A DNA stretch of 57,558 bases from Pseudomonadota bacterium (GCA_963205165.1 CAUJJX010000313.1:1-57558); one strand, 5' to 3'; numbered from the stretch's first letter, positions 9,815-44,717 are shown. Notes: generated from the sequence alone by a model not told the origin. Translations and numbers: made by a program.

Positions 9815-11994
<2,180 letters not shown>

Positions 11995-14942: not shown

Positions 14943-15203
14943 ATGCCCGGGTTCATCGACATCCGCGTCGATGGTGCCGTCGCGACGATCGCGCTCAACC
15001 GGCCGGACAAGGCAAACGCCATGCACCGGCCGCTCTGGAACGCACTGCGTGACGCGATGCGCTGGCGGGACGAGACGCCGACGATCCGGGTCGGCGTGCT
15101 CACCGGGGCGGGGCGCCATTTCACCGCCGGGATCGACCTCGCGCTGCTCGACGAGCTGCGGCAGGGCGTCGAATCCGGCTGCGCGGCACGCTCGCGCGAG
15201 TAG
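14943..15203 (+). pseudogene. enoyl-CoA hydratase/isomerase (crotonase) N-terminal remnant
   Basis: Only 86 codons (IDIRVDGAVATIALNRPDKANAM...LTGAGRHFTAGIDL), ended by TAG. Crotonase proteins are about 260 aa. The remaining 177 nt up to the tRNA-Leu 3' end has no coherent continuation. There is only a weak IAAxIG trace, in another frame. Confidence 0.55.
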
Positions 15204-15380: not shown

Positions 15381-15712
15381 TGGTGCGCCCAGCCGGGGTC
15401 GAACCGGCACGACCGAAGTCGAGGGATTTTCCTGCCACTTCGGCTTTCGCCGCCATCGTGACGATGTTCGTGGTCTGGACTTTGTCTTGACCGTAACCGC
15501 GCGGAACGCACCCGCAAGGCCTTAGGCCGGCGCCGTCAAGTCTCTGCACGTTCCCCCGCGACCGAATCGATTTGTTGCGGGGGCTTCGCTCAGCGTTGCC
15601 TCGCCCCGGAGGGCAGGGGGTTCGCTGAATTTGACGCCATTCACGCGGACGCTTTCGCCGTCCGGTGCTCAAATTTCAAGTCCCTTGCGTCTACCAGTTT
15701 CGCCATGGGCGC
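15381..15712 (-). tRNA. tRNA-Leu(UAA), split by a group I intron
   Basis: The 5' exon is 15712..15678 and reads GCGCCCA TG GCG AAACTGGTAGA CGC A AGGGA CTT. The 3' exon is 15430..15381 and reads AAAA TCCCT CGACTTCGGTCGT GCCGG TTCGACC CCGGC TGGGCGC A CCA. Joined, they give an 85-nt class-II cloverleaf with a 7-bp acceptor stem, a long variable arm, discriminator A and anticodon UAA. Confidence 0.85.
15431..15677 (-). ncRNA. group I (IC3-like) self-splicing intron in the tRNA-Leu anticodon loop
   Basis: 247 nt inserted between U34 and A35. It is preceded by U and ends in G. Core strings present are GUCAAAUUCAGCG, GGCAACGCUGAGCGAAGCC, GUGCAGAGACUUGACGGCG and CCUAAGGCC. There are two GAAA-tetraloop hairpins and no ORF. 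Confidence 0.8.
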
Positions 15713-15782: not shown

Positions 15783-15879
15783 CTCGCACATTGCCCCGGC
15801 GCGGTGTCTCGTTTCGCGAACGCCTCGGCGGATACGCATCCCGCATCCTTCCTGACCGATCTCCCGGAACCCGAATGAC

Positions 15880-16740
15880 ATGACCGTAATCATCGGCTAC
15901 GTCGTCATCCTTGCCAGCGTCGTCGGCGGCTTCGTCATGGCCGGCGGCCACGTCGGCTCGCTGATCCAGCCCCTCGAAGTCCTGATGATCGCCGGTGCGG
16001 CTGTCGGCGCGTTCGTCGTCGCCAACTCCGGCAAGGTCATCAAGTCGACGATGAGCACCCTGCCCACCGTCTTCAAGGGATCGCGATTCACCAAGACGCT
16101 CTACCTCGAACTGCTCTCGCTGCTGTACGACGTCCTCGCAAAGGTCCGCAAGGAAGGCCTGATGTCGATCGAGAACGATGTCGAATCGCCGGAGCAGAGC
16201 CCGATCTTCTCGAAGTACCCGATGATCCTCTCCGACCACCACGCGATGGAGTTCCTCACGGACTACCTGCGGATCATGGTCGGCGGCAACCTGAATGCCT
16301 TCGAGATCGAGAACCTGATGGACGTCGAGATCGAGACCCACCATCACGAGGGCGAGGTCCCCGTGCAGGCCGTGAACCGTCTCGCCGACGGTCTTCCTGC
16401 GTTCGGCATCGTGGCGGCCGTCATGGGCGTCGTGCACACGATGGAATCCGTGGGGCTGCCGCCCGCCGAACTGGGCAAGCTGATTGCCGCTGCCCTGGTC
16501 GGGACCTTCCTCGGGATCCTGCTGGCGTACGGTTTCGTGGGTCCGCTGGGCACGCTCCTCGAACACAAGCTGAACGAGTCGACGAAGATGTACCAGTGCA
16601 TGAAGGTCACGCTGCTCGCCAGCCTGAATGGCTATGCGCCGCAGGTCGCGGTCGAGTTCGGCCGCAAGGTGCTCTACTCGACGGAACGGCCGACCTTCAA
16701 GGAACTCGAGGAAGAAGTGAAGAATCGCAAGGGCAAGTGA
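15880..16740 (+). CDS. motA: flagellar motor stator protein MotA
   Basis: 286-aa ORF of MotA-like length and sequence (IIGYVVILASVVGGFVMAGG; C-terminal MotA/TolQ/ExbB channel helices). Confidence 0.92.
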   Translation: MTVIIGYVVILASVVGGFVMAGGHVGSLIQPLEVLMIAGAAVGAFVVANSGKVIKSTMSTLPTVFKGSRFTKTLYLELLSLLYDVLAKVRKEGLMSIENDVESPEQSPIFSKYPMILSDHHAMEFLTDYLRIMVGGNLNAFEIENLMDVEIETHHHEGEVPVQAVNRLADGLPAFGIVAAVMGVVHTMESVGLPPAELGKLIAAALVGTFLGILLAYGFVGPLGTLLEHKLNESTKMYQCMKVTLLASLNGYAPQVAVEFGRKVLYSTERPTFKELEEEVKNRKGK

Positions 16741-16771
16741 GCCACGTGATCCTTCCACGACGAGTGACAGC

Positions 16772-17821
16772 ATGAGCGACGATTCCCAGCAGCCGATCAT
16801 CGTCAAGCGCATCAAGAAGGGCGGCCATGGTCACCATGGCGGCGCCTGGAAGATCGCGTACGCCGACTTCGTCACCGCGATGATGGCGTTCTTCCTTCTC
16901 ATGTGGCTGCTGGGCTCCACGACGAAGGGCGACCTCAGTGGCATTTCGGAGTACTTCAAGACCCCATTGAAGGTCGCGCTCATGGGCGGCTCCGGCGCGG
17001 GCGATGCGACCAGCCTCATCAAGGGCGGCGGCACCGACCTCACGCGCAAGACCGGCCAGGTCAACGAGAAGCTCGAAGGCAAGAAGCGCAACGGCATCAT
17101 CGTCAACGAGGAAGAGGTCGAGAAGATGCTGCAGGCGCAGGAGGCCGAGCGTCTGAAGGGCCTGAAGAGCGAACTCCAGGACGTCATCGACAAGAACCAG
17201 ACGCTCGCGCAGTTCAGGAACCAGCTCCTCATCGACATCACCACCGAAGGCCTCCGCGTCCAGATCGTCGACGAGAAGAACCGCCCGATGTTCGCGATCG
17301 GCAGCAGCCAGCTGCAGCCATACACGCGCGAGATCCTGCGCGAGATCGGCAAGGTGCTGAACGAGGTCGAGAACCGCATCACGATCTCCGGCCACACCGA
17401 TGCGTCGCCCTACTCGGGAGGAGAGCGCGGCTACAGCAACTGGGAACTCTCCGCCGATCGTGCCAACACGGCGCGCCGCGAACTGCTGTCCGGCGGCATG
17501 GAAGAGCATCGCATCGCGCGCGTCGTCGGTCTCGGTTCCGCCGTGCTGCTCGACGCCGCGGATCCGTTCGGCGAGACCAACCGGCGCGTGAGCATCATCG
17601 TGATGAACCGCAAGGCGGAGCAGGCTGCGCGCACCGACGGCGGGACCATCGAGGTGGACGAACTGGTTGCCGGCTCTGCACGCGTGTCGTCGGCGTCGCC
17701 CCCGGCCGCACATGGCGCCGCGCCCGCAGCGCCAGCAGCGCCCACGGACGCAGGTCACTCACCCGCGGCGAAGCCGGCAGTCGCAGGACACGTCAGCGAT
17801 GGCAGCGAAAAGCATCACTGA
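16772..17821 (+). CDS. motB: flagellar motor stator protein MotB
   Basis: 349-aa ORF. Contains AWKIAYADFVTAMMAFFLLMWLL (TM helix with the conserved Asp) and a C-terminal OmpA-like peptidoglycan-binding domain (GHTD...NWELSADRA). Confidence 0.9.
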   Translation: MSDDSQQPIIVKRIKKGGHGHHGGAWKIAYADFVTAMMAFFLLMWLLGSTTKGDLSGISEYFKTPLKVALMGGSGAGDATSLIKGGGTDLTRKTGQVNEKLEGKKRNGIIVNEEEVEKMLQAQEAERLKGLKSELQDVIDKNQTLAQFRNQLLIDITTEGLRVQIVDEKNRPMFAIGSSQLQPYTREILREIGKVLNEVENRITISGHTDASPYSGGERGYSNWELSADRANTARRELLSGGMEEHRIARVVGLGSAVLLDAADPFGETNRRVSIIVMNRKAEQAARTDGGTIEVDELVAGSARVSSASPPAAHGAAPAAPAAPTDAGHSPAAKPAVAGHVSDGSEKHH

Positions 17822-18566
17822 CCCCGTGACCACGCGTCACGCCGCGATCCCGCCGATCGCGAAGGCGCTCCTCGCACAGGCGCTCGCCTGGATCGTCGTC
17901 CAGGCAACCTTCGGTGAACCGGCGCCCGTCGCATTGCTGATCGAGTCGTTGCTCGCCGGCGGCATCGGCCGGTTGTTCGGGCTCGAACGCTGGTGGTTCC
18001 CGTTGAACGCCGGCTTCACGCTGCTCGTCGCGGCGGGCCTGATGCTCGCCATCGACCCTCTGTGGTACCTCGCCGCATTCGCGATCCTGTTCGTGACGTA
18101 CTGGAGCACCTTCCGCACGCAGGTCCCGCTGTTCCTGTCGAATCGCGAAGCGGTCGACGCGCTCGCCACGCTGCTGCCGACCGAGCGCCCTGTGCGTCTG
18201 CTCGACATCGGCTGCGGGACCGGCACGGTGATGGCCGGACTCGCCGGTCGCATGCAGGGCGACCGACTGCGCGGCGTCGAGATCGCACCGGTGCCGTTCG
18301 CGATCGCATGGCTGCGCGGAAGACTCTCGCGTGGCGCATTCTCGGTGACTCGCGACGACTTCTGGTGCGAGAACCTCGCCGACGAGGATGTCGTGTACGC
18401 ATTCCTCTCGCCTGTCCCGATGGGCGCGCTGTGGCGCAAGGTGCGCGCGGAGATGCGCCCCGGCAGCCTGTTCGTCAGCAACACGTTCGAAGTGCCCGGC
18501 GTCGCACCGGATCACGTGATCCCGCTCGGACGCAGCGGCCGTGCGCTGCTGGTCTGGCGCCTCTGA
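17799..18566 (+). CDS. membrane-anchored class I SAM-dependent methyltransferase
   Basis: In-frame ATG of ORF 17667..18566. The N-terminal ~110 aa are hydrophobic, followed by LLDIGCGTGTV (SAM motif I). The start overlaps the motB end by 23 nt. Confidence 0.7.
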   Translation: MAAKSITDPVTTRHAAIPPIAKALLAQALAWIVVQATFGEPAPVALLIESLLAGGIGRLFGLERWWFPLNAGFTLLVAAGLMLAIDPLWYLAAFAILFVTYWSTFRTQVPLFLSNREAVDALATLLPTERPVRLLDIGCGTGTVMAGLAGRMQGDRLRGVEIAPVPFAIAWLRGRLSRGAFSVTRDDFWCENLADEDVVYAFLSPVPMGALWRKVRAEMRPGSLFVSNTFEVPGVAPDHVIPLGRSGRALLVWRL

Positions 18567-18582
18567 GCGCACGGGTCTGCCC

Positions 18583-20004
18583 ATGGACATGAACGAAGTC
18601 GTCGAGGCGCTGGGCAACCGGGATGTACCGGTGCTCGCCTGCACTGTGGCGACACTACGGAAGATGCGGCGCGAAGAAGACCGGGTCACGGCGCGCGACA
18701 TCTCGCGCGTCGTGCTTCGTGATCCGCTGATGACGCTGAAGGCACTGCGCTTCGCCGAGGCCAATCGCTCGATCCGCCAGTTGTCCGACATCACGACTGT
18801 CGAGCACGTCGTGATGATGCACGGCATCGGCGAATTCCTGCGGACGTTCGCCGATCTCACATCGCTGGAAGGCCTTCTCGCGAAGGACTCGATCGCGCTG
18901 GATGGCGCACTCAGGGTCGTGAGCCGGGCGCAGCACGCCGCGGCCTTCGCCCGTTCGATCGCGAGCCGGCGTCACGACAAGGAGTCCGACGAGGTCATCA
19001 TCGCGGCGCTGCTGCACGACCTCGCCGAACTGATGCTGTGGCTGCATGCGCCGCGCGAGGTCGCCGAGATCCGCTATCTGGTCGATCACGCGGTCGGCCT
19101 GCGCAGCGCTGCCGCGCAGCGCTTCGTGCTCGGATTCACGCATGGTCAGTTGCAGCACGCGCTCGCCGGTGCATGGCATCTGCCACGGTTGCTGCAACGC
19201 CTGATGGACGACGAGCACGCCGAGAATCCGCGCGTCGTGAACGTCGTGCTGGCGACACGACTCGCGCGTCACCTGGCCCACGGCTGGTACGACGCCGCAC
19301 TGCCCGACGACTACTCGGATCTCGAGCATCTGCTGGGTTGCTCGGAGGACGGCGCCCGCCGGATGGTGCGCGCCGCCAGCCTGAACGCGGCGCGCCTCTG
19401 GACCGACACCGGCATCCGCCCCGTGGCGGCCGGCATTCCGCTGGAGGAGGGCGACATCCCGCCAGAGCCCGGACTGTTCCTGCCCTCGGGAAATGTCGAC
19501 GGGCCGCTCTTCAAGTCTGCCCTCCAGAAACTCACCGACGCCGCGCCGCGTCGCGATCACGATCCCTTCATTGCCTGGGCGCTCTACGCACTCCAGTTCG
19601 GACTCGGACTGAAGCGTGTCGGCTTTGCCGCACCGGGTGCGCACGGCGATCACCTGCAGATGCGGTTCGTGTTCGATCTCGATGCGCCGGTCTCGCCGTG
19701 GCGCGACATGCCGATACCGCTAGGCGGGACCGACCTGTTCTCGCGACTCTCCGGAAACATGCAGGGAGTCTGGGCCGGTGGCGACAATCGGGAACGGGTC
19801 GCGAGCCTCCTCCTGCCGGAGCAAGGCGCTAGAATCGGCCGGTCCGATTTTCTGGCGATGTCGGTACGCGGCAACGATGGGGCGGGCGGCCTCGTGATCG
19901 CCGATCGCGGTTCAGCAGGCGGCGCGATTCCCGACCGGCTCTACGCCCCGTTCAAGGCGCTGTGCGTGAAACTCGCCGAGAAGCTCGACACGCCCTCGTA
20001 CTGA
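18583..20004 (+). CDS. HDOD domain signalling protein with uncharacterised C-terminal domain
   Basis: In-frame ATG of ORF 18541..20004. HDOD-like N-terminal half (LPVLACTVATL...DPLMTLKALRFA...GIGEF...AALLHDLAEL). The C-terminal ~200 aa are unassigned. Confidence 0.72.
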   Translation: MDMNEVVEALGNRDVPVLACTVATLRKMRREEDRVTARDISRVVLRDPLMTLKALRFAEANRSIRQLSDITTVEHVVMMHGIGEFLRTFADLTSLEGLLAKDSIALDGALRVVSRAQHAAAFARSIASRRHDKESDEVIIAALLHDLAELMLWLHAPREVAEIRYLVDHAVGLRSAAAQRFVLGFTHGQLQHALAGAWHLPRLLQRLMDDEHAENPRVVNVVLATRLARHLAHGWYDAALPDDYSDLEHLLGCSEDGARRMVRAASLNAARLWTDTGIRPVAAGIPLEEGDIPPEPGLFLPSGNVDGPLFKSALQKLTDAAPRRDHDPFIAWALYALQFGLGLKRVGFAAPGAHGDHLQMRFVFDLDAPVSPWRDMPIPLGGTDLFSRLSGNMQGVWAGGDNRERVASLLLPEQGARIGRSDFLAMSVRGNDGAGGLVIADRGSAGGAIPDRLYAPFKALCVKLAEKLDTPSY

Positions 20005-20053
20005 TCCCGGCCACCACCGGGTCGGATGCCTACCCGATCGATTCCCGGACAGC

Positions 20054-20614
20054 GTGACCACCCAATTTCATCTCCGACGTGCAGGGCAGGTGAGCGGACC
20101 GTTCACCCGCAGCATGCTGCTGCGCGACCGCATGCTCGGACGCATCGCGGCGAGCGACGAGGTCAGCATCGACGGCGATTCGTGGCTGACCATCGCGGAC
20201 TGCGAGACGCTGGACGTCGCCGAGATCAACACGCCGCCGCGCGTTCCGGTCGTCGACGAAGCGTGGGCTGCGGAGCGCGAGCGCGCGCGCCTGCGCTGGC
20301 TCGACGAACGCGCGCAACCCGATCGCCGGCAGGCACCCGGCGCGATGCCGCACGAAGGCCGCAGCGGTCGGGACCGTCGTGCGAATCCGGTGCCGCCCGC
20401 GAAACATTTCGGTCCTGTCGACGCACCGCCCGAAGCCCATCATCCGCACCTGCGGTTCGCCTTGTTCGTCGTACTGGTCGTCGCGATCGCCGGCGCGTTG
20501 CTCTGGTGGTTCGTGCCGCGGCAAGCGCCTCGAATCCGACTCACGGACACGCCGGCTGCAGTGACCGCCGCGCCCGGCGCCGTTGCCTTCACGATACGTC
20601 CGGCCATCGCGTGA
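20054..20614 (+). CDS. GYF_2 (DUF4339)-like domain protein with one TM helix
   Basis: 186-aa ORF with host-like codon usage. N-terminal pattern GQVSGPFT...G.I...D.V...GDSW and the TM segment FALFVVLVVAIAGALLWWF. GTG start. Confidence 0.55.
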   Translation: MTTQFHLRRAGQVSGPFTRSMLLRDRMLGRIAASDEVSIDGDSWLTIADCETLDVAEINTPPRVPVVDEAWAAERERARLRWLDERAQPDRRQAPGAMPHEGRSGRDRRANPVPPAKHFGPVDAPPEAHHPHLRFALFVVLVVAIAGALLWWFVPRQAPRIRLTDTPAAVTAAPGAVAFTIRPAIA

Positions 20615-21438
20615 GCCTCGTCATCCGGTCGCGCGACAACGCGCTCGTGAAGCGCCTCGCACGTCTCTCCGCGCAAGGGCGGGCAAGGCGGGAGGAGGGC
20701 GTCGGCATCATCGAAGGTTGGCACCTCGTGCGCGCCCTGCTGGAATCGCGCAGGCGGGGTGCGTCGAATCTGCTGAGCGTCGCACTTTCCGAAGCGGCCA
20801 TCGATCATCCCGAATCGCGGACGATGATCGACCGACTCGACGGCGTTGCGCTCCACGTGATCGATGCGTCCGTGTTCGCACGCATCGGGGAATCCGACGG
20901 TCCGAACGCCGTGCTCGGCGTATTCACGCTGCCTCCCACCAGTGGCACAACACCGGTGAAAGAGGGCGGGCTGCAACTCTGGCTCGATGCCGTGCAGGAC
21001 CCCGGCAACGTCGGCACGCTGATCCGCACCGCCGCCGCGGCAGGTGCGACAGCCGTCGTGCTCGGTCCGGGCTGCGCCGATCCGTGGTCACCGAAGGCAC
21101 TCCGCGCCGGCATGGGCGGACACTTCGAGACGGCCGTAGTGAACGGCGTCGTCTGGGCCGATGCGGCGCGTGCGTTCGGCGGACAGATCCTCGCACTCGC
21201 GCTGGATGGAAGCCGCAGCCTCTACGACACAGTCCTCGACGGCGACGTCGCCGTCCTGCTGGGCAACGAAGGGGCGGGCCTGTCGGAATCCGTCGCTGCA
21301 CTCGCCAGTGCGCGCGTGCACATCCCGATGCCTGGCGCGGTGGAATCGCTCAACGTGGCCGCTGCTGGCGCGATCGTGTGCTTCGAGCGGGTGCGGCAGC
21401 TGCAAGTAGCGGCCGCGGCGAAATCAACGTCCCGTTGA
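20611..21438 (+). CDS. TrmH/SpoU-family RNA 2'-O-methyltransferase
   Basis: In-frame GTG of ORF 20026..21438, overlapping the upstream stop (GTGA). SpoU motifs DAVQDPGNVGTLIRTAAAAG, LLGNEGAGLS and ESLNVAAA. Confidence 0.85.
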   Translation: MSLVIRSRDNALVKRLARLSAQGRARREEGVGIIEGWHLVRALLESRRRGASNLLSVALSEAAIDHPESRTMIDRLDGVALHVIDASVFARIGESDGPNAVLGVFTLPPTSGTTPVKEGGLQLWLDAVQDPGNVGTLIRTAAAAGATAVVLGPGCADPWSPKALRAGMGGHFETAVVNGVVWADAARAFGGQILALALDGSRSLYDTVLDGDVAVLLGNEGAGLSESVAALASARVHIPMPGAVESLNVAAAGAIVCFERVRQLQVAAAAKSTSR

Positions 21439-21489
21439 TTCGGCGACGGCGCGCACGCTGGGGCGTCAGCCGGCGCTGCGGCCGTGGCA

Positions 21490-22302
21490 TCAGTCGAGAC
21501 GCAATGTCAGGCACTTCGCCGAGCCGCCGGCCCTCATGAACTCAGACAGGTCCGTGGCGATCGCTTCGAAGCCACGTGCCGCGAGAAGGCGCCGCAATCT
21601 GCCGGACCACCGGTGAGCGAACACGCGGCCGCCGACCTCGACGGCATTGCACGCGAACTCATTGGCCTCGTCGACCGTAACCGCGATGCCTCGCGATGGT
21701 CCGAACTGCTCGGTCAGCATCGCACGCGCATCGGGTGTGAATGCCTCCGGGTACCAGAGTGCGCTGCCATCCGGAAGCGGGCAGAAGCAGGTATCCAGAT
21801 GGTAGAAGTGCGGATTGCAGAGGTGTGCCGGCACCGCCGGGGCACCGGGGACAGCGTCGACGAGGACATCGACTGCTGCGAGGTCGGTCCGGAATCCCCA
21901 GCCGATCACGAGTCCGCCACCGAGCAGCTGCAGCGCGTCGCCCGCACCTTCGAACGGCAGTCGCGCCTCGACGAAACGAGTGTCAACTTCGAATCCCGCC
22001 TTGCGCAGCGCGCCCCCGTACAAGACGTGTTCCGGCTGGCGCTCCGGCTTCGCGAACCAGGACAGGAATGCTCGACGCCCGATGACGGCTGCGGCATTCG
22101 CCGTAAACACGAGGTCCGGCAGGTCCGGTGGCTGGCTTGTCATGACATCGAGCGTAGCGCCGGCGCGAACCAGTTGATCTGCGAGGGCGTCCCATTGAGC
22201 GTGCGCGACGACCGGGTCCGCTCGTCCGATGTTGGGTCCCATCCAGGGATTGATCTCGTAGTTCACTGCGAAGTGCCGGGGCTCGCACATCAGGAAGCGC
22301 AT
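21490..22302 (-). CDS. amidinotransferase/DDAH-superfamily (guanidino-group-modifying) enzyme
   Basis: 270-aa ORF. N-terminus MCEPRHFAVNYEINPWM. A C-terminal catalytic-Cys context GGSAKCLTL is typical of the superfamily. Confidence 0.75.
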   Translation of the reverse strand: MRFLMCEPRHFAVNYEINPWMGPNIGRADPVVAHAQWDALADQLVRAGATLDVMTSQPPDLPDLVFTANAAAVIGRRAFLSWFAKPERQPEHVLYGGALRKAGFEVDTRFVEARLPFEGAGDALQLLGGGLVIGWGFRTDLAAVDVLVDAVPGAPAVPAHLCNPHFYHLDTCFCPLPDGSALWYPEAFTPDARAMLTEQFGPSRGIAVTVDEANEFACNAVEVGGRVFAHRWSGRLRRLLAARGFEAIATDLSEFMRAGGSAKCLTLRLD

Positions 22303-22462
22303 CGGTCAAAGCCTGCGAGTTGGGGAATGGGCACTACGACGTCCCGTGGTAATCACCGCGGGGGAGACGAGCGAGGTCCTGCGTACGGTGTCCGGTCGCC
22401 AGTCGACGAATCCACCCGGTGGAACTGAAACGCCCGGTCGATACGCCGGCTTCGAATATGGA

Positions 22463-22478
22463 CATAATGCACATTATG
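22463..22478. promoter_or_regulatory. perfect AT-rich inverted repeat CATAATG-CA-CATTATG (candidate operator)
   Basis: A 7+7 palindrome in an otherwise GC-rich 420-nt spacer. It lies about 160 nt upstream of the amidinotransferase-like gene start (22302). Confidence 0.3.
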
Positions 22479-22722
22479 CCGTCTTTAACTGGAGCCGCCG
22501 AGCCGCGTCCGCGCTGAAGGCCCATGCGAAGACCGGCTGCCCGGCTCGGTGAAGTTGATCAGTTCGAGCAATCGCCACGGACCCGCAACTCGTGCACGGC
22601 GCCAACGCTGCCCGCATACGAAACGACAAGCCGTCCCGGCCAATGGAAGACACCGCTTCCATCACGCGTGGAGCGCATCGGCATCTGGGTCCGCTGCATC
22701 CTGCAGCTGCGCCCGAGTGCGC

Positions 22723-23502
22723 CTAGCGTCGAGCGTTTTGAAACAGTCGGAAGAAATTGTCGGACGTGGACGTCGCCAACGCGTCGCGATCGATCTGTCG
22801 GAGATCGGCCACGAAATCGCAGACGTGCCGGACGAACGCTGGTTCGTTCGTGCTGCCCCGATGCGGCACTGGTGCGAGGTACGGCGAATCGGTCTCGACG
22901 AGCAGCCGGTCGGCGGGGACCTGCCGCGCGACCTCGCGCAGCGACTCGGCACTCTTGAACGTGACGATTCCGGAAAATGAGATGTAGAACCCGAGGTCAA
23001 GGGCGGCCCGCGCGACGTCCCATGTCTCGGTGAAACAGTGCATCACGCCACCGGCGTCGGACGCGCCTTCCGAGCGGAGCATCCCGATCGTGTCGTCGGA
23101 CGCACTGCGCGTGTGCACGATGAGCGGCTTGCGCATTTCGCGTGCGGCGGCAATGTGATTCGCGAACCTCACACGCTGCACGTCGGCGCGTTCCGGATGT
23201 CGGAAATAGTCGAGCCCTGTCTCGCCGATCGCGACGACCTTCGGGTGCTTTGCGAGCGCGACCAGCATGTCGGCCGTCGGATCCACACCGTCGTCGTGGT
23301 CCGGATGAACGCCGACCGATGCGAAGAAATTCTCGTGGCGTTCGGCGAGCGCCATCACGCGCGGCAGATTCTCGAGATCCACGGCGACGCAGAGCGCGTG
23401 CGACACGGAAGCTGCGGACATCGCGTCGCGGATGGCATCGATGCGCGGCAGGAGATCCGGGAAATCGAGGTGGCAATGTGAATCGACGACGGAAGCGGTC
23501 AC
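22723..23502 (-). CDS. TatD-family metal-dependent hydrolase/DNase
   Basis: 259-aa ORF. N-terminal VDSHCHLDF and TatD-family histidine/aspartate pattern. Canonical position after holB-pilZ. Confidence 0.9.
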   Translation of the reverse strand: MTASVVDSHCHLDFPDLLPRIDAIRDAMSAASVSHALCVAVDLENLPRVMALAERHENFFASVGVHPDHDDGVDPTADMLVALAKHPKVVAIGETGLDYFRHPERADVQRVRFANHIAAAREMRKPLIVHTRSASDDTIGMLRSEGASDAGGVMHCFTETWDVARAALDLGFYISFSGIVTFKSAESLREVARQVPADRLLVETDSPYLAPVPHRGSTNEPAFVRHVCDFVADLRQIDRDALATSTSDNFFRLFQNARR

Positions 23503-23507
23503 GGGGT

Positions 23508-23882
23508 CTACATCGTGTGGGTCGGGAGATTGGTCTTGGCCTGGGCGGCCAGCAGCGTCTCGATGCGCGCCTTCGCCGTCTGGCCGGATTCGTCGTCACG
23601 GAACTGGACGCCGATGCCCTGCATCTTGTTGCCCTGGGCGCCCGCCGGCGTCACCCAGATGACCTTGCCGGCCACCGGCAGTCGCGCCGTGTCGCCCGGC
23701 AGGACGATGAGCATGAAGATCTCGTCGCCGAGCCCGTAACTCTTGCTCGTCGGAATGAAGATGGCACCGCCCTTCACGTACGGCATGTACGCCGAGTGCA
23801 GCACCGAGGTGTCCTTGATGTTCAGGGACAGCGCGGTCGTTCTCGGCGGGTGTTCCGGTTTGTCGGTGGGCGGGAGGGCCAT
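23508..23882 (-). CDS. pilZ: PilZ domain protein (type IV pilus-associated PilZ type)
   Basis: 124-aa ORF similar to the PilZ encoded downstream of holB in Pseudomonas and Xanthomonas-type genomes (LSLNIKDTSVLHSAYMPYVKGGAIFIPT). Confidence 0.8.
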   Translation of the reverse strand: MALPPTDKPEHPPRTTALSLNIKDTSVLHSAYMPYVKGGAIFIPTSKSYGLGDEIFMLIVLPGDTARLPVAGKVIWVTPAGAQGNKMQGIGVQFRDDESGQTAKARIETLLAAQAKTNLPTHTM

Positions 23883-23885
23883 GGC

Positions 23886-24944
23886 TCAGGAGGGATGTCG
23901 ACAGTCCGCGTAATCGAGCAGCAGATCGGCCACGACGAGCTTCGGGTTGAGTGGATGATCGGCCAACGCACCGGCCTGCCGCAAGCGACGTTCGAATTTC
24001 AGCAGAGCGGGCAGACTCATCGCCGCCGAGGCGCGCGCCAGGGCGTCCCGACGGTCGGTGTGATATCGCACCCGCTGCGCTGCGCAACTCGAGATCAGAT
24101 CGCAGACCCACGTGTGCAGCACCGCCTGCACGAACTGCGGCGCGACGGTCTCGAGATCGCGAACACCGGTGCGGCGCTCGCGGCCGTCTGCCGCGAGAAA
24201 TCCGAGCAAGCGCTCCCGGGCATCCCAGTACTCGGCGGTCAGCTCGGCCGCCGCGAGCGGTGCCTGCCCTGCGAGATCAAGTGCAAGGGCCGCGCGATCG
24301 ACACCCGCCGACGCCAGCCACGCGGTCGATTCCGAGGCCGTGGGGCGGGGCAACCGGATCACATGGCAGCGGCTGCGGACGGTCGGCAGGAGTCGCGTCT
24401 CGTGCGCGCTCGCAAGAACGATGGCCGCGCCCGCCGGCGGTTCCTCCAGGATCTTCAGCAGTGCGTTCGATGCGGCGGCGTTCATGGAATCGGCGGGCGC
24501 CAGGATCGCGCACCGCCCTTCCCCGCCGTTCGCGTTGACCTGCATGAACGCGATCAGCTCGCGCACGTCACCGACGGCGATGCCGCGGGATCGTTCGGAT
24601 TTCTTCGCGCCCTTCTCTCCGACGTCCTCGGCCGAAGCATCGGACGGCAACTCGACGTCGCGCCCGAGGCGAAGCATGTCCGGATGGTGCCCCGCAGCCC
24701 GCCACTCGCACGGACGGCACGTGCCGCACGGAAGTCCGTCCGGACCCGGCGCTGCACACAGCCGGGCACCGAGGACGAGCATCGCGAACATCGAGAGGCC
24801 GCTTCCCGCCGGGCCGGTGACCAGCATCGACTGGGGTAGCGCCGGTTGCTGGCGCAGGCGCATCCACGCGTCGCGGTGCCAGGGCAGCAGCGACGATCCT
24901 CCGATCGGGACGCCGGACAATGGCGTGGAGCGCGCGAGGCTCAC
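23886..24944 (-). CDS. holB: DNA polymerase III delta-prime subunit
   Basis: GTG start overlaps the tmk stop (GTGA), inside ORF 23886..25295. Contains LPWHRDAW, the degenerate P-loop GPAGSGL and the zinc module CGTCRPC. Confidence 0.85.
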   Translation of the reverse strand: MSLARSTPLSGVPIGGSSLLPWHRDAWMRLRQQPALPQSMLVTGPAGSGLSMFAMLVLGARLCAAPGPDGLPCGTCRPCEWRAAGHHPDMLRLGRDVELPSDASAEDVGEKGAKKSERSRGIAVGDVRELIAFMQVNANGGEGRCAILAPADSMNAAASNALLKILEEPPAGAAIVLASAHETRLLPTVRSRCHVIRLPRPTASESTAWLASAGVDRAALALDLAGQAPLAAAELTAEYWDARERLLGFLAADGRERRTGVRDLETVAPQFVQAVLHTWVCDLISSCAAQRVRYHTDRRDALARASAAMSLPALLKFERRLRQAGALADHPLNPKLVVADLLLDYADCRHPS

Positions 24945-25576
24945 GTTTCCAGCCACCTCGAAATGACGTCCGCGACGCGGGCGCGGACCTCTCCGGGTGA
25001 GACGTCGGATCGCACGGAGCGGATGCGCTGCGGCTCCCGCTCGGCCTGCGCGCGATACATCGCGGCGACGCGCTCGTGGAATGCGGAAGCCTCGCTCTCG
25101 AAACGGTCGGCGTCGCCGCGTCCGGAAATGCGATGCACGGCTGTGCCGACGTCGATCTCGAGCAGCACGGTGAGATCGGGAACAAGCGTCGGATGAACCC
25201 AGTCCGCGAGCTGGGTGATGCGTTCGATCGGCATGCCGCGCCCACCGCCCTGGTACGCGATCGTGGCGTCGATGAATCGATCGCACAGCACCCACTGGCC
25301 GCTCTCGAGCGCAGGAAGAATCACGCGATGGATGTGCTCGAAGCGCGCCGCGAACAGAAGCAGCGTCTCGGTCCCAGGGAGCATGGCATTCGCCGGATCG
25401 AGCAGCAGGGAACGGATCGCGTTTCCGACGGGCGTCCCGCCGGGCTCGCGGGTCATCACCAGCGGGATTCCGCGGTCTCGCAGCGTGGCCGCCGCACCTT
25501 CGATGCAGGTGGTCTTGCCAGCACCGTCGATGCCTTCGAAGGTGATGAAGCGGCCACGTGCCGGAGCATTGTTCAT
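24941..25576 (-). CDS. tmk: thymidylate kinase
   Basis: 211-aa ORF with the P-loop FITFEGIDGAGKTT and a DRF motif. Confidence 0.94.
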   Translation of the reverse strand: MNNAPARGRFITFEGIDGAGKTTCIEGAAATLRDRGIPLVMTREPGGTPVGNAIRSLLLDPANAMLPGTETLLLFAARFEHIHRVILPALESGQWVLCDRFIDATIAYQGGGRGMPIERITQLADWVHPTLVPDLTVLLEIDVGTAVHRISGRGDADRFESEASAFHERVAAMYRAQAEREPQRIRSVRSDVSPGEVRARVADVISRWLET

Positions 25577-26619
25577 CGCTTCTGGTACCTCGTGACGGCG
25601 CGGTTGTGATCGTCGAGTGTCGCCGAGAACTCGGACGTGCCGTCGCCGCGTGCCACGAAATAGAGTGCGCGGCTGACGGCCGGATTCGTCACCGCCGCAA
25701 GCGAGGCCGCCCCCGGCAGCGCAATGGGCGTCGGCGGCAGGCCACCGCGCACGTACGAGTTGTACGGCGTGTCTTCCTCGAGATCGGCACGCCGCAGGTT
25801 TCCGTCGAAGCGTGCGCCCTTCCCGTAGATCACGGTCGGGTCACTCTGGAGACGCATGCCGATGCGCAGACGATTGATGAACACCGACGCGATCAGGTTG
25901 CGGTCCTCGGGACGACCGGTCTCCTTCTCGACGACGGAGGCCAGGATCAGCGCCTCGTAAGGAGATCCGAGCGGCAAGCCGTCCGTGCGCGTGGCCCATG
26001 CTGCGTCGAGGCGCTCGCGCATGCGCGCCCGCGCGACGCGCAGGATCTGCAGGTCGCTGGTGCCGACGGAAAAGACGTAGGTGTCCGGAAAGAAGAGGCC
26101 TTCCGCACGGCGCTCGATCGCACCGAGTCGCTCGAGAATCTCGTTCTCGGACAACGCGGTGCTGTCGTGCTTCAGGCTCGCATGGCGATCGAGTGCCGAC
26201 CGCATCTGTGCGAACGTCCAGCCTTCGATGATCGTCACCCGATCGTTGAGGGATTCGCCGCGGACCATCCGGTCCAGGAGTTCGTTCGGCGTCATCCCGG
26301 GCTTGATCTCGTAGACGCCCGCCTGAAGACGTTCGCCCTGGCCGCGCAAACGGGCGACCGCACTGAATGCCCACGGCGAAACGATCAGTCCCTGCGCGGC
26401 GAGGTTGCGGGAGATGGTCCGGAGGCCGGATCCCGGCTGGACAGCAACGCGTGTTCCGGTTGACTGCCCGAGCATGGGCGAGTTGGCAAACCGCCAGAGT
26501 CCGCCACCGAGCACGACGGCCAGCGCGACGACCGCGATGAATGCAAGGAAGAGGGCGCGCCCCTTCCCCGATTCACGGTTTGCCCTGGCCCGACGATCGG
26601 AGCCGATAGCCGACTCCAT
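25573..26619 (-). CDS. mltG: endolytic murein transglycosylase (YceG family)
   Basis: 348-aa ORF with an N-terminal TM anchor and a YceG-like domain (IIEGWT, LASVVEKET). 4-nt overlap with the tmk start. Confidence 0.88.
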   Translation of the reverse strand: MESAIGSDRRARANRESGKGRALFLAFIAVVALAVVLGGGLWRFANSPMLGQSTGTRVAVQPGSGLRTISRNLAAQGLIVSPWAFSAVARLRGQGERLQAGVYEIKPGMTPNELLDRMVRGESLNDRVTIIEGWTFAQMRSALDRHASLKHDSTALSENEILERLGAIERRAEGLFFPDTYVFSVGTSDLQILRVARARMRERLDAAWATRTDGLPLGSPYEALILASVVEKETGRPEDRNLIASVFINRLRIGMRLQSDPTVIYGKGARFDGNLRRADLEEDTPYNSYVRGGLPPTPIALPGAASLAAVTNPAVSRALYFVARGDGTSEFSATLDDHNRAVTRYQKR

Positions 26620-26632
26620 CTGTCGGTGCGAC

Positions 26633-27871
26633 TCAGAGAGCCCGGAAGATCAGCGTGCCGTTGGTCCCGCCGAATCCGAAGGAATTCGAGAGTGCAACAT
26701 CGATCTTCATGGGCCGCGCCACGTTGGGAACGTAGTCGAGATCGCATGCGGGATCGGGATCGACCAGATTGATGGTCGGCGGGGCGACCTGATCACGAAT
26801 CGCCAGGACGCTGAACACCGCCTCGACTCCGCCTGCTGCCCCAAGCAGGTGGCCGGTCATGGACTTCGTCGAACTGACGGCCACCGAACGCGCGTGGTCA
26901 CCGAAACAACGCTTCACCGCGACGGTCTCGGCAATGTCTCCGAGCGGCGTCGACGTACCGTGCGCGTTGATGTAGTCGACCTGATCCGGATTCATGCCTG
27001 CAACCCGCAGCGCATTCCGCATGCAGCGGAACGCACCATCGCCGTCTTCGCTCGGCGCGGTCATGTGGCTTGCGTCCGCGCTCATGCCGAAACCGACGAG
27101 TTCGCAGTAGATCTTCGCCCCGCGGGCCTTGGCGTGTTCGTACTCTTCGAGGACGAGGATGCCCGCGCCTTCACCGAGAACGAAACCGTCGCGACCGGTA
27201 TCCCACGGACGGCTTGCAGCCTCCGGATCGTCGTTTCGCGTGGACAGTGCGCGCATCGCCGCGAAACCACCGACGCCGAGCGGACTCACCGTGGCCTCGG
27301 CCCCGCCGGCGACGACGATGTCAGCGTCACCGTACTCGATCAGCCGCCCCGCTTCGCCGATGCAGTGCGTCGACGTCGTGCAGGCAGTCACGATGGCGAG
27401 GTTCGGACCCTTGAAGCCGTGCATGATCGACAGCGTGCCGGCGATCATGTTGATGATGCTGCCCGGCACGAAAAACGGCGAGATCTTGCGCGGCCCGCCC
27501 GCCGTGAGTGCGGCGTGCGTGTCCTCGATGAGCGGGAGTCCGCCGATGCCGGATCCGATGATCGTCGCGATGCGCTCGGCGTTCTCCGGGGTCACCTCGA
27601 TGCCCGCATCCCGGATCGCCTCGTTGGCCGCGGCGATGCCGTAGTGGATGAACGTATCGAGGCGCCGAGCTTCCTTGGCGGGCATGTGGTCCGCGGCATC
27701 GAACCCCTTCACTTCACCCGCGATCTGCGACGCGAAACCTGTCGTGTCGAATCGCGTGATGCGGGAGATGCCGGAGCGCCCGGCGATGATGTTCTCCCAC
27801 GCGGTGGAAACACCGGTACCCGTCGGAGAAACGATGCCGAGACCGGTGACGACAACCCTGCGTTTTGTCAC
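26633..27871 (-). CDS. fabF: 3-oxoacyl-ACP synthase II
   Basis: [11 protein letters not shown]-terminus with active-site Cys (TACTTS) and His contexts. I chose the GTG at 27871, which has GGAG 5 nt upstream. The track ORF starts 6 nt earlier. Confidence 0.95.
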
Positions 27872-27911
27872 GTGCACTCCGGAAGTCAGGAACGACGCAC
27901 GAGGCGTCGAA

Positions 27912-28148
27912 TCACTTGGTGTTGTTGTTGATGTAGTCGATGGCCTGCTGGACGGACGTGATCTTCTCGGCCTCTTCGTCCGGGATGTCGCATTCGAATT
28001 CTTCTTCGAGCGCCATCACGAGTTCCACCGTGTCGAGCGAGTCGGCACCCAGGTCGTCGACGAAGGTCGATTCCGTCTTGATGTCGGCTTCATTCACACC
28101 GAGTTGTTCCGCGACGATCCGCTTGACACGCTGTTCTACGGTATCCAT
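27912..28148 (-). CDS. acpP: acyl carrier protein
   Basis: 78-aa ORF with the phosphopantetheine site [19 protein letters not shown]. Confidence 0.97.
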
Positions 28149-28313
28149 TGAATTTCCTTCCCTCTGGTTGATTCCGGTGATGACGGGAACACGCCGATCG
28201 GCTGCTCCCCTGTGATCAGAATGATCCTGACGCTGATTCGATTCGCACCGAACCGGGCGCGCATTCTACCAAAAACAGTCTTCCAAACGTCCCCCCGCGG
28301 AGACGATCGGTAC

Positions 28314-29051
28314 TCACTCCATCAGCATTCCACCATTCACGTGAATGGTCGACCCCGTGATGTAGCTGGCACCCTCCGATGCGAGGAAACCGACGGCGTG
28401 CGCGACCTCGCGCGCATTGCCGAACCGGCCGAGCGGCACCTGACCGAGGAGCGCATCGCGCTGCGCATCGACCAGTCCGCGTGTCATGTCGGTATCGATG
28501 AAACCGGGCGCGACGCAGTTCACCGTGATGTTCCGGCTGCCCACCTCGCGCGCGAGGGATTTGGCGAAGCCGGCCACGCCCGCCTTGGCCGCTGCGTAAT
28601 TCGCCTGGCCCGCGTTGCCGAGATGCCCCACGACGGATGTCACGTTGACGATGCGGCCCCAGCGGGCCTTCATCATCGGCCGCAGCACGAGCTTCGACAG
28701 AACGAACACCGAACGCAGATTCGTGGCCATGATCTGGTCCCACTCGTCGTCCTTCATCCGCAGGAGCAGGTTGTCGCGCGTGATGCCGGCGTTGTTGACG
28801 AGGATCGAGACATCGCCAAGTTGCGCCTGCACTGCGGCAAGCGCGGACTCCATTCCTGCACTGTCGCTGACGTCGAGCTGCACCCCGATGCCGTCGATGC
28901 CGGCAACCTTGAAGGCTTCCTGAAGTGCGGCGGCGCCTTCGACCGTGGTGGCCGTGCCCGCGACCCTCGCCCCCCTGGCGCCGAGTTCGAGGGCGATCGC
29001 GTGGCCGATGCCGCGGGAAGCGCCGGTGACGAGAGCGATCTTTCCGTTCAT
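28314..29051 (-). CDS. fabG: 3-oxoacyl-ACP reductase
   Basis: Internal ATG of ORF 28314..30059. Contains ALVTGASRGIG, NNAG and the YxxxK motif YAAAKAG. ATGA overlap with the fabD stop. Confidence 0.95.
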   Translation of the reverse strand: MNGKIALVTGASRGIGHAIALELGARGARVAGTATTVEGAAALQEAFKVAGIDGIGVQLDVSDSAGMESALAAVQAQLGDVSILVNNAGITRDNLLLRMKDDEWDQIMATNLRSVFVLSKLVLRPMMKARWGRIVNVTSVVGHLGNAGQANYAAAKAGVAGFAKSLAREVGSRNITVNCVAPGFIDTDMTRGLVDAQRDALLGQVPLGRFGNAREVAHAVGFLASEGASYITGSTIHVNGGMLME

Positions 29052-44641: not shown

Positions 44642-44717
44642 TCCCCGATAGCTCAGTCGGTAGAGCGACGGACTGTTAATCCGCAGGTCCCTGGTTCGAG
44701 CCCAGGTCGGGGAGCCA
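44642..44717 (+). tRNA. tRNA-Asn(GUU)
   Basis: 76-nt cloverleaf. Acceptor TCCCCGA/TCGGGGA, D arm GCTCAGTCGGTAGAGC, anticodon loop CTGTTAA, T arm CTGGTTCGAGCCCAG, and encoded CCA. Confidence 0.95.

Follow-up and report, generated by a model that had tools for sequence, protein, structure and literature searches.

[quoted passage not shown] Self-splicing is established for the cyanobacterial tRNA-Leu(UAA) intron and for the tRNA-Ile intron of Azoarcus (as cited in PMC3984707), and the latter, an IC3 intron located in the tRNA-Ile(CAU) gene of Azoarcus sp. BH72, has both crystal and cryo-EM structures. The same survey contains the Leu.3Cg introns of tRNA-Leu(CAA) genes (for example, that of Bordetella tumbae, L010 in our set), whose splicing was flagged there as untested (Williams 2020).

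We have analysed a stretch of DNA of 57,558 nucleotides (GCA_963205165.1, CAUJJX010000313.1:1-57558), which as a whole will be called the window. The reading that we favor, with a probability of about 0.88, is that its minus strand, from an uncultured, Burkholderiales-like betaproteobacterium, carries a functional tRNA-Leu(UAA) gene interrupted between U34 and A35 by a 247-nt tRNA-type (IC3) group I intron that, by analogy with established group I chemistry, would be removed by self-splicing. An earlier reading, made from the sequence alone (the sequence-only reading), had proposed such a gene, and its exon borders proved to be exact: ARAGORN in intron mode returned identical ones (tRNA-Leu(taa), 85 nt, 247-nt intron, gactt/…/aaaat), placing the intron between U34 and A35 of the anticodon loop (Table 1). 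ARAGORN and the sequence likewise agree with the description of the insert as 247 nt long, preceded by U and ending in omega-G, and all the strings quoted from it were found in the minus-strand sequence. The joined 85-mer is accepted by ARAGORN as a class-II cloverleaf with a 7-bp acceptor stem, a long variable arm, a T arm, discriminator A73 and an encoded CCA, and its 5-bp anticodon stem (AGGGA/UCCCU) is intact across the joined exons. Eight independent metagenome/MAG contigs contain a 501-nt region of this locus at 99.2-100% identity, which rules out an assembly artefact. Within the 332-nt precursor, the only variants among these eight contigs of the species are a T>G change at 15570 and, next to it, a 3-nt insertion in L004, and both of them sit in L6a, the unpaired loop of P6a.

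Table 1. Features of the split tRNA-Leu(UAA) gene, its intron and the adjacent motility genes (positions counted from the first nucleotide of the window).
Feature	Position	Strand	Description	Basis
tRNA-Leu(UAA) exon 1	15678..15712	(-)	acceptor 5' strand, D arm, anticodon stem 5' strand, C32-U33-U34	ARAGORN intron mode and sequence
U-1 of intron	15678	(-)	last base of exon 1	
Group I (IC3-type) intron	15431..15677	(-)	247 nt, ORF-less	RF00028, relatives-only HMM, relatives-only CM
P1	15668..15680	(-)	exon CUU and intron GA against UUGAG (internal guide); U.G wobble at 5' splice site, 15678 with 15670	
P2 hairpin	15642..15667	(-)	10 pairs, two bulges, GAAA tetraloop 15653-15656	also in MFE fold
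P3 5' strand	15633..15638	(-)	GGCGUC; partner 15529-15534	
P4, J4/5, P5, J5/4	15590..15628	(-)	P4 UCAGCG/CGCUGA, J4/5 AAC, P5 hairpin CC-CCU-GCCC UCCG GGGC-GA-GG, J5/4 CAA	
P6 and P6a	15548..15589	(-)	P6 GCG/CGU, P6a CCCCCGC/GCGGGGG, 17-nt loop L6a 15560-15576	
P7 5' strand	15538..15544	(-)	G(A)GACUU, bulged A; partner 15477-15482	
P3 3' strand	15529..15534	(-)	GGCGCC	structure parse and 80-sequence test
P8	15489..15528	(-)	outer helix GGCC/GGUC, CCUAAG...UAC-GG receptor-like internal loop, variable distal extension	
P7 3' strand	15477..15482	(-)	AAGUCC, preceded by J8/7 AAGACA 15483-15488	
P9 three-way domain	15435..15473	(-)	CCAC/GUGG, hairpin CAUCG-UCA-CGAUG, hairpin CGGC-GAAA-GCCG (GAAA 15445-15448)	
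Tail CAGG	3' of P9 domain	(-)	ends in omega-G	
omega-G	15431	(-)	last intron nucleotide	
tRNA-Leu(UAA) exon 2	15381..15430	(-)	A35-A38, anticodon stem 3' strand, long variable arm, T arm, acceptor 3' strand, discriminator A, encoded CCA	ARAGORN
Predicted spliced exon junction			…GGGACUU|AAAAUCCC…	
motA	15880-16740		upstream of tRNA gene, divergent	
motB	16772-17821		upstream of tRNA gene, divergent	

Judged by its sequence, the insert is genuinely a group I intron of the IC3 type and has no ORF; the IC3 label is taken from the published classification of the Leu.3Ug type. A local Rfam scan with RF00028 matched 15688..15459 on the minus strand over the full model (1-253) with 44.3 bits and an E-value of 5.6e-10, so that the match to this family anticipated earlier is full-length and significant but stays under the gathering score of 50. 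When eight clear relatives were used as controls they scored 36-64 bits with the same model, one of the eight passing 50 and three not being reported; the failure to reach 50 is therefore due to the model rather than to the window sequence. A profile HMM built from 79 relatives, with the window left out, gave one match in the 57.5-kb window (15684..15425 on the minus strand, E 7.3e-40), and a covariance model (CM) built from 77 relatives, again with the window left out and with a structure lacking the P7 pseudoknot, also gave one match (15685..15425 on the minus strand, 194.3 bits, model positions 1-245), in which no non-canonical pair was flagged in the window and for which the E-value of about 8e-63 comes from a rough calibration. 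RF00028, ARAGORN, the structure described below, the HMM and the CM all support the view that an ORF-less group I intron of the IC3 type separates U34 from A35 in this tRNA-Leu(UAA) gene. As had been claimed, there is no homing endonuclease, since the helices account for all 247 nt and leave no room for an ORF; in public assemblies no gene is called between a hydratase fragment (see below) and motA.

With tRNA-Leu(UAA) introns, including the cyanobacterial ones, the window intron has in common the host gene and the site (CUU/intron/AAAA), U-1, omega-G and the P1-P9 architecture, and the claim that the U34/A35 insertion site is that of the cyanobacterial tRNA-Leu(UAA) intron was borne out. Both are ORF-less and of similar size: the 84 Leu relatives among the matches listed (76 UAA and 8 CAA) have introns with a median length of 231 nt (range 200-404 nt) compared to 247 nt in the window, and the last intron nucleotide is G in all 84. 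Furthermore, J6/7 GCAGAGAC is common to the window intron and cyanobacterial Sel1.Leu.3Ug. However, the cyanobacterial Leu form in the seed alignment differs from that of the window, in which both the P9 domain (ACCAC...GGCGAAAGCC...GUGG) and the P5 motif (CCCUG...CGAG) follow the form of the proteobacterial and acidobacterial relatives, and the host of the window intron is betaproteobacterial, unlike those of the cyanobacterial Leu introns.

The proteobacterial Leu.3Cg introns of tRNA-Leu(CAA) (Williams 2020) occupy the same anticodon-loop position, use the same guide (UUUGAG) and occur in the same bacterial classes, and their P3-P9 core, which is much like that of the window intron, aligns with it throughout. 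They differ in having C-1, a C-G pair in P1 and the CAA isoacceptor, whereas the window has U-1, a U.G wobble and the UAA isoacceptor. Eight tRNA-Leu(CAA) loci among the matches listed carry a closely related intron after C-1 (L010, L017, L077, L080, L104, L113, L116 and L119).

The core strings of the window are nearly identical to those of the Azoarcus intron (seed Aol6.Ile2.5Ug), a likeness that the sequence-only reading had stated and that extends over GUCAAAUUC(A/G)GCGAA, GGCAACGC(U/C)GAGC(G/C)AAGC and G(C/U)AGAGACU(U/A)GACGGC(G/A)CC. Both introns carry GAAA tetraloops on P2 and P9 and the CCUAAG receptor motif in P8. The Azoarcus intron, however, is located in another tRNA, where it is inserted after loop position 5 and not after position 3 as in the window, and it has a simple P9 hairpin in place of the three-way P9 junction and the longer P6a and P8 extensions of the window intron.

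The sequence-only reading had presented such introns as only sporadically reported in proteobacteria, and this does not hold, as at least 76 tRNA-Leu(UAA) genes split at the same site were found in species-representative genomes and the 2020 survey calls the type classical. These genomes were scanned for a pattern of the intron 3' domain followed by GAAAA, which gave at least 120 loci; among the matches listed, ARAGORN assigned at least 76 to tRNA-Leu(UAA) split at the site of the window with U-1 and omega-G, at least 8 to tRNA-Leu(CAA) with C-1, and at least 36 to other tRNAs or to no call. Taxa were counted by record title for the 71 Leu(UAA) loci among the matches listed with introns of up to 290 nt, and at least 56 of these 71 belong to Pseudomonadota: 31 to Alphaproteobacteria, 17 to Gammaproteobacteria (including 3 Ca. 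Rariloculaceae), 7 to Betaproteobacteria (Rivibacter, Variovorax, Achromobacter, Bordetella and Pararobbsia) and 1 to unclassified Proteobacteria. The same 71 include 9 from Acidobacteriota, 3 from Bacteroidota, 2 from Planctomycetota and 1 from Bdellovibrionales. The type is therefore widespread in proteobacteria, the split Leu(UAA) genes among the matches listed being mostly alpha-, beta- and gammaproteobacterial, and the argument from rarity fails. On core columns the window intron is at most about 75% identical to the sampled relatives among the matches listed (median 68%), and it is a divergent betaproteobacterial member of a large family that occupies the same site in many phyla and already has abundant members in public genomes. 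It is a real case but an ordinary one, and no new mechanism is involved. A tRNA-Leu(UAA) intron was reportedly described in a gammaproteobacterium in J. Bacteriol. in 2002.

The same intron 3' domain was also observed in other split tRNA genes, for which ARAGORN calls Phe(GAA) (e.g., L009, L016, L045, L067 and L073), Phe(AAA) or Ser (e.g., L023, L024, L028, L047 and L056); some of these Phe and Ser anticodon calls look like misplaced splice sites. In one gammaproteobacterial relative (L031:4218-4582) the intron-bearing tRNA-Leu gene is preceded, about 1 kb upstream, by the tmRNA gene.

The proteobacterial origin assigned earlier to the host is supported by its protein-coding genes. Besides motAB, the window holds ppsA, pyrG, eno, lpxB, fabF, holB, rne, uvrB and glnD. 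The best NCBIfam sub-models are PRK03059 for GlnD and PRK06964 for HolB, which we take to be models built from Burkholderiales, and UvrB homologues that are 80-83% identical bear the names of MAGs from Betaproteobacteria or Burkholderiales, so the host is an uncultured betaproteobacterium. Identity of the tRNA exons was indecisive for the host taxon, reaching at most 87% with Xanthomonadales and Burkholderiales alike. When MotA, MotB, the MFS/hydratase ORF and the HDOD protein were compared by tBLASTn with the at least 120 genome loci, no synteny was found.

A syntenic relative came from a metagenome scan with the 27-mer of the spliced junction, which gave at least 120 matches. Contig L158 (ERZ1066136 NODE-1247, 68% G+C) is syntenic with the window over about 13 kb (15879-29023), from motA/motB through fabF, with a nucleotide identity of 82% over motA/motB and 69-76% further to fabF. 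At L158:11521-11605, in the same place and orientation, there is an uninterrupted tRNA-Leu(UAA) gene with 7 differences from the spliced tRNA of the window. The blastn similarity between both sequences stops at the tRNA 3' end, and beyond it there is a weak translated match to a hydratase fragment (38% over 55 aa). On the window side, the match of the ORF at 14943-15203 on the plus strand (86 aa) to the enoyl-CoA hydratase profile (251 positions) is limited to positions 4-61; L158 has, at the corresponding place and convergent to the tRNA, a full-length hydratase (profile 6-249), so that what follows the tRNA 3' end in the window is apparently the remnant of a truncated gene. Among the matches listed, no intronless copy identical to the window tRNA was found; the closest of them, L130 (2 mismatches), was discarded as an intronless twin because its G+C content of 53% indicates another organism.

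The intron is thus present in the window and absent from L158, and it was either gained in the lineage of the window or lost in that of L158, a situation that reflects the usual gain and loss of such introns. The long residence that had been deduced from its composition is not sustained, as the syntenic relative carries the same tRNA gene without the intron. It could even be that the functional intron was acquired recently, by lateral transfer followed by reverse splicing or by recombination of the whole tRNA locus, an idea that we hold tentatively and at somewhat less than even odds. The intronless syntenic locus of L158, the spread of the intron family over several phyla and the end of synteny at the tRNA 3' end, where the adjoining hydratase is truncated in the window, all point in this direction, but a loss in L158 fits the pattern equally well, the G+C content of the intron (63%) is near that of the host, and no donor is visible among the matches listed, in which the sampled introns reach at most about 75% identity on core columns. 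A mosaic or recombinant origin of the intron was also considered and rejected, as the nearest neighbours of its segments are all at 70-87% and no consistent donor emerges. The pair formed by the window and L158 at one syntenic locus could be useful for studying the gain and loss of ORF-less tRNA introns.

The structure of the intron was parsed by analogy with the published seed alignment and consensus structure. The parse comprises P1, P2, P3, P4, P5, P6, P6a, P7, P8, P9, P9a and P9b, and all of its 70 pairs are canonical in the window; every helix of the P1-P9 structure that was to be checked can form, including the P3-P8 core with the P3/P7 pseudoknot. Both GAAA loops (L2 and L9) are present, P8 carries CCUAAG...UAC-GG, a receptor-like motif that was read directly from the sequence, and P5 carries CCCUG...CGAG, common to Beta- and Gammaproteobacterial relatives. 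Most of the helix assignments made earlier were right: GUCAAAUUCAGCG contains the end of P3, J3/4 and P4, GGCAACGCUGAGCGAAGCC contains J5/4, P4', P6 and the start of P6a, and GUGCAGAGACUUGACGGCG contains P6', J6/7, P7, J7/3 and P3'. Two of them had to be corrected, as CCUAAGGCC is not a P8 hairpin but the 5' strand of a longer P8 (GGCC...GGUC) with the CCUAAG receptor-like motif, and one of the two GAAA hairpins that had been placed in the P9 region belongs to P2. The single-sequence MFE fold recovers P2-P6 and P9 with an unremarkable z of -1.37; it chooses a local GGCC-UAA-GGCC hairpin that is not supported by the comparative data, which favor the long-range P8 (99.4% paired).

These comparative data come from an alignment (A1) of the window with 79 relatives, 80 sequences in total, in which 93.0% of the pair cells are standard pairs, a figure that falls to 30-43% if the 3' partners are shifted along by 1-3 columns. 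Changes on both sides were found at 47 of the 70 pairs, none of 500 shuffles reached the observed values, and the core helices are 99-100% paired. P1 is 100% paired, the splice-site pair being U.G in 72 of the 80 sequences and C-G in the other 8, which are from Leu(CAA) genes, and P2 has changes on both sides at all of its 10 pairs. P3 has 99.4% of its cells paired and 5 of 6 pairs covarying, P4 and P6 are 99.4% and 99.2% paired, respectively, and the outer helix of P8 (99.4% of cells paired) has 3 of 4 pairs covarying. The AA residues of J4/5, whose role we infer from established group I structures, are invariant in the alignment. P7, which forms a pseudoknot with P3, has 99.8% of its cells paired and shows covariation at 3 of its 6 pairs. 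Two G-C pairs do not vary in any of the 80 sequences and, by analogy with established group I structures, the invariant G-C pair is expected to bind guanosine. The invariance of P9/L9 among the relatives follows from the search pattern used to collect them, which contained parts of the P9 domain (TCCAGACCAC and GCRGCGAAAGCYG were parts of this pattern).

As this structure had been derived from the window, the reverse test was run with pairs defined from the relatives alone: 50 pairs reach at least 90% pairing in them, and every one of these is canonical in the window. Furthermore, 92 columns show at least 95% conservation among the relatives, and the window matches 89 of them. Two of the three deviating columns form one P4 pair (columns 84/137), which is A-U in the window only and G-C in the other 79 sequences, and therefore represent a compensatory change; the third is a U to C change in J6/7 that is present too in the cyanobacterial seed sequence Sel1.Leu.3Ug. 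A P6 G-C pair is a second compensatory pair unique to the window, and together the P4 and P6 pairs imply selection for pairing along this lineage.

According to our preferred reading, a 332-nt precursor would be transcribed from the gene; a scan for promoter-like and terminator-like sites near the locus found none. The P1-P9 core would then fold with formation of the P3/P7 pseudoknot, the GAAA tetraloops would clamp the fold through contacts of L2 with the receptor-like motif of P8 and of L9 with that of P5, as in Azoarcus, and the exon C-U-U would pair with the internal guide UUGAG, the U.G wobble marking the 5' splice site. Free guanosine positioned at the P7 G-C pair would attack after U34, omega-G would next occupy the P7 site, the freed 3'-OH of U34 would attack after omega-G, and the joined exons would constitute an 85-nt tRNA with anticodon UAA. 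The borders, U-1, omega-G, the conserved and covarying core and the intact anticodon stem are results on which this scheme rests, and the other steps are those that we infer from the chemistry reviewed in PMC3984707.

It is very unlikely that the intron is a decayed relic that no longer splices, so that the split gene would be a pseudogene and another tRNA would read UUA and UUG. The RF00028 score under the gathering value could be taken as a sign of decay, but low Rfam scores are usual for this clade of introns, and the truncated enoyl-CoA hydratase remnant beside the tRNA 3' end does indicate some local decay. Against it, the intron has retained all 50 relative-defined pairs and 89 of the 92 highly conserved positions, two of the three changes compensating each other, the compensatory P4 and P6 pairs found in the window alone imply that pairing has been under selection, the exons give a flawless cloverleaf, and the polymorphisms are confined to a peripheral loop.

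A functional intron in what is perhaps the only UUA-reading tRNA might also be imagined to gate the supply of this tRNA according to guanosine nucleotide or Mg2+ status, as a bldA-like checkpoint conceivably tied to the divergent motAB genes. The position of the gene is the one observation in favor of this proposal, to which we give hardly any credence; UUA codons are expected to be rare in a genome with ~65% G+C such as this one. Finally, a chance resemblance or an assembly chimera, for which the sub-threshold Rfam score and nothing else could be adduced, has a negligible probability given the E-values obtained with the CM and the HMM, each with a single match in the window, and the presence of the locus in eight independent assemblies.

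The prediction that default annotation would miss this gene was correct. Default ARAGORN did not call the split tRNA and made a sole call in the window, tRNA-Asn at 44642-44717, and an Rfam scan of the whole window at gathering thresholds reported no intron and only the tRNA at 44642-44717. As to self-splicing group I introns, the paper on tRNAscan-SE 2.0 states that the program "was not designed to detect" them (PMC8450103). As default tools skip the split gene, such a genome can appear to be devoid of tRNA-Leu(UAA), and the practical value of the locus lies in annotation and in the presence/absence pair that the window forms with L158.

Two other observations concern the neighbouring genes. 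The enolase ORF (10234-11994, plus strand) encodes 586 aa with the enolase domains starting at residue 163, and translation probably begins some 160 codons further downstream, unless the protein has an unusual N-terminal extension. Immediately after motAB (17800-20004, plus strand), a gene for a 255-aa protein without Pfam hit is called in public assemblies, followed by one for an HDOD-domain protein (18541-20004), and the two proteins may be a motility-linked signalling pair.
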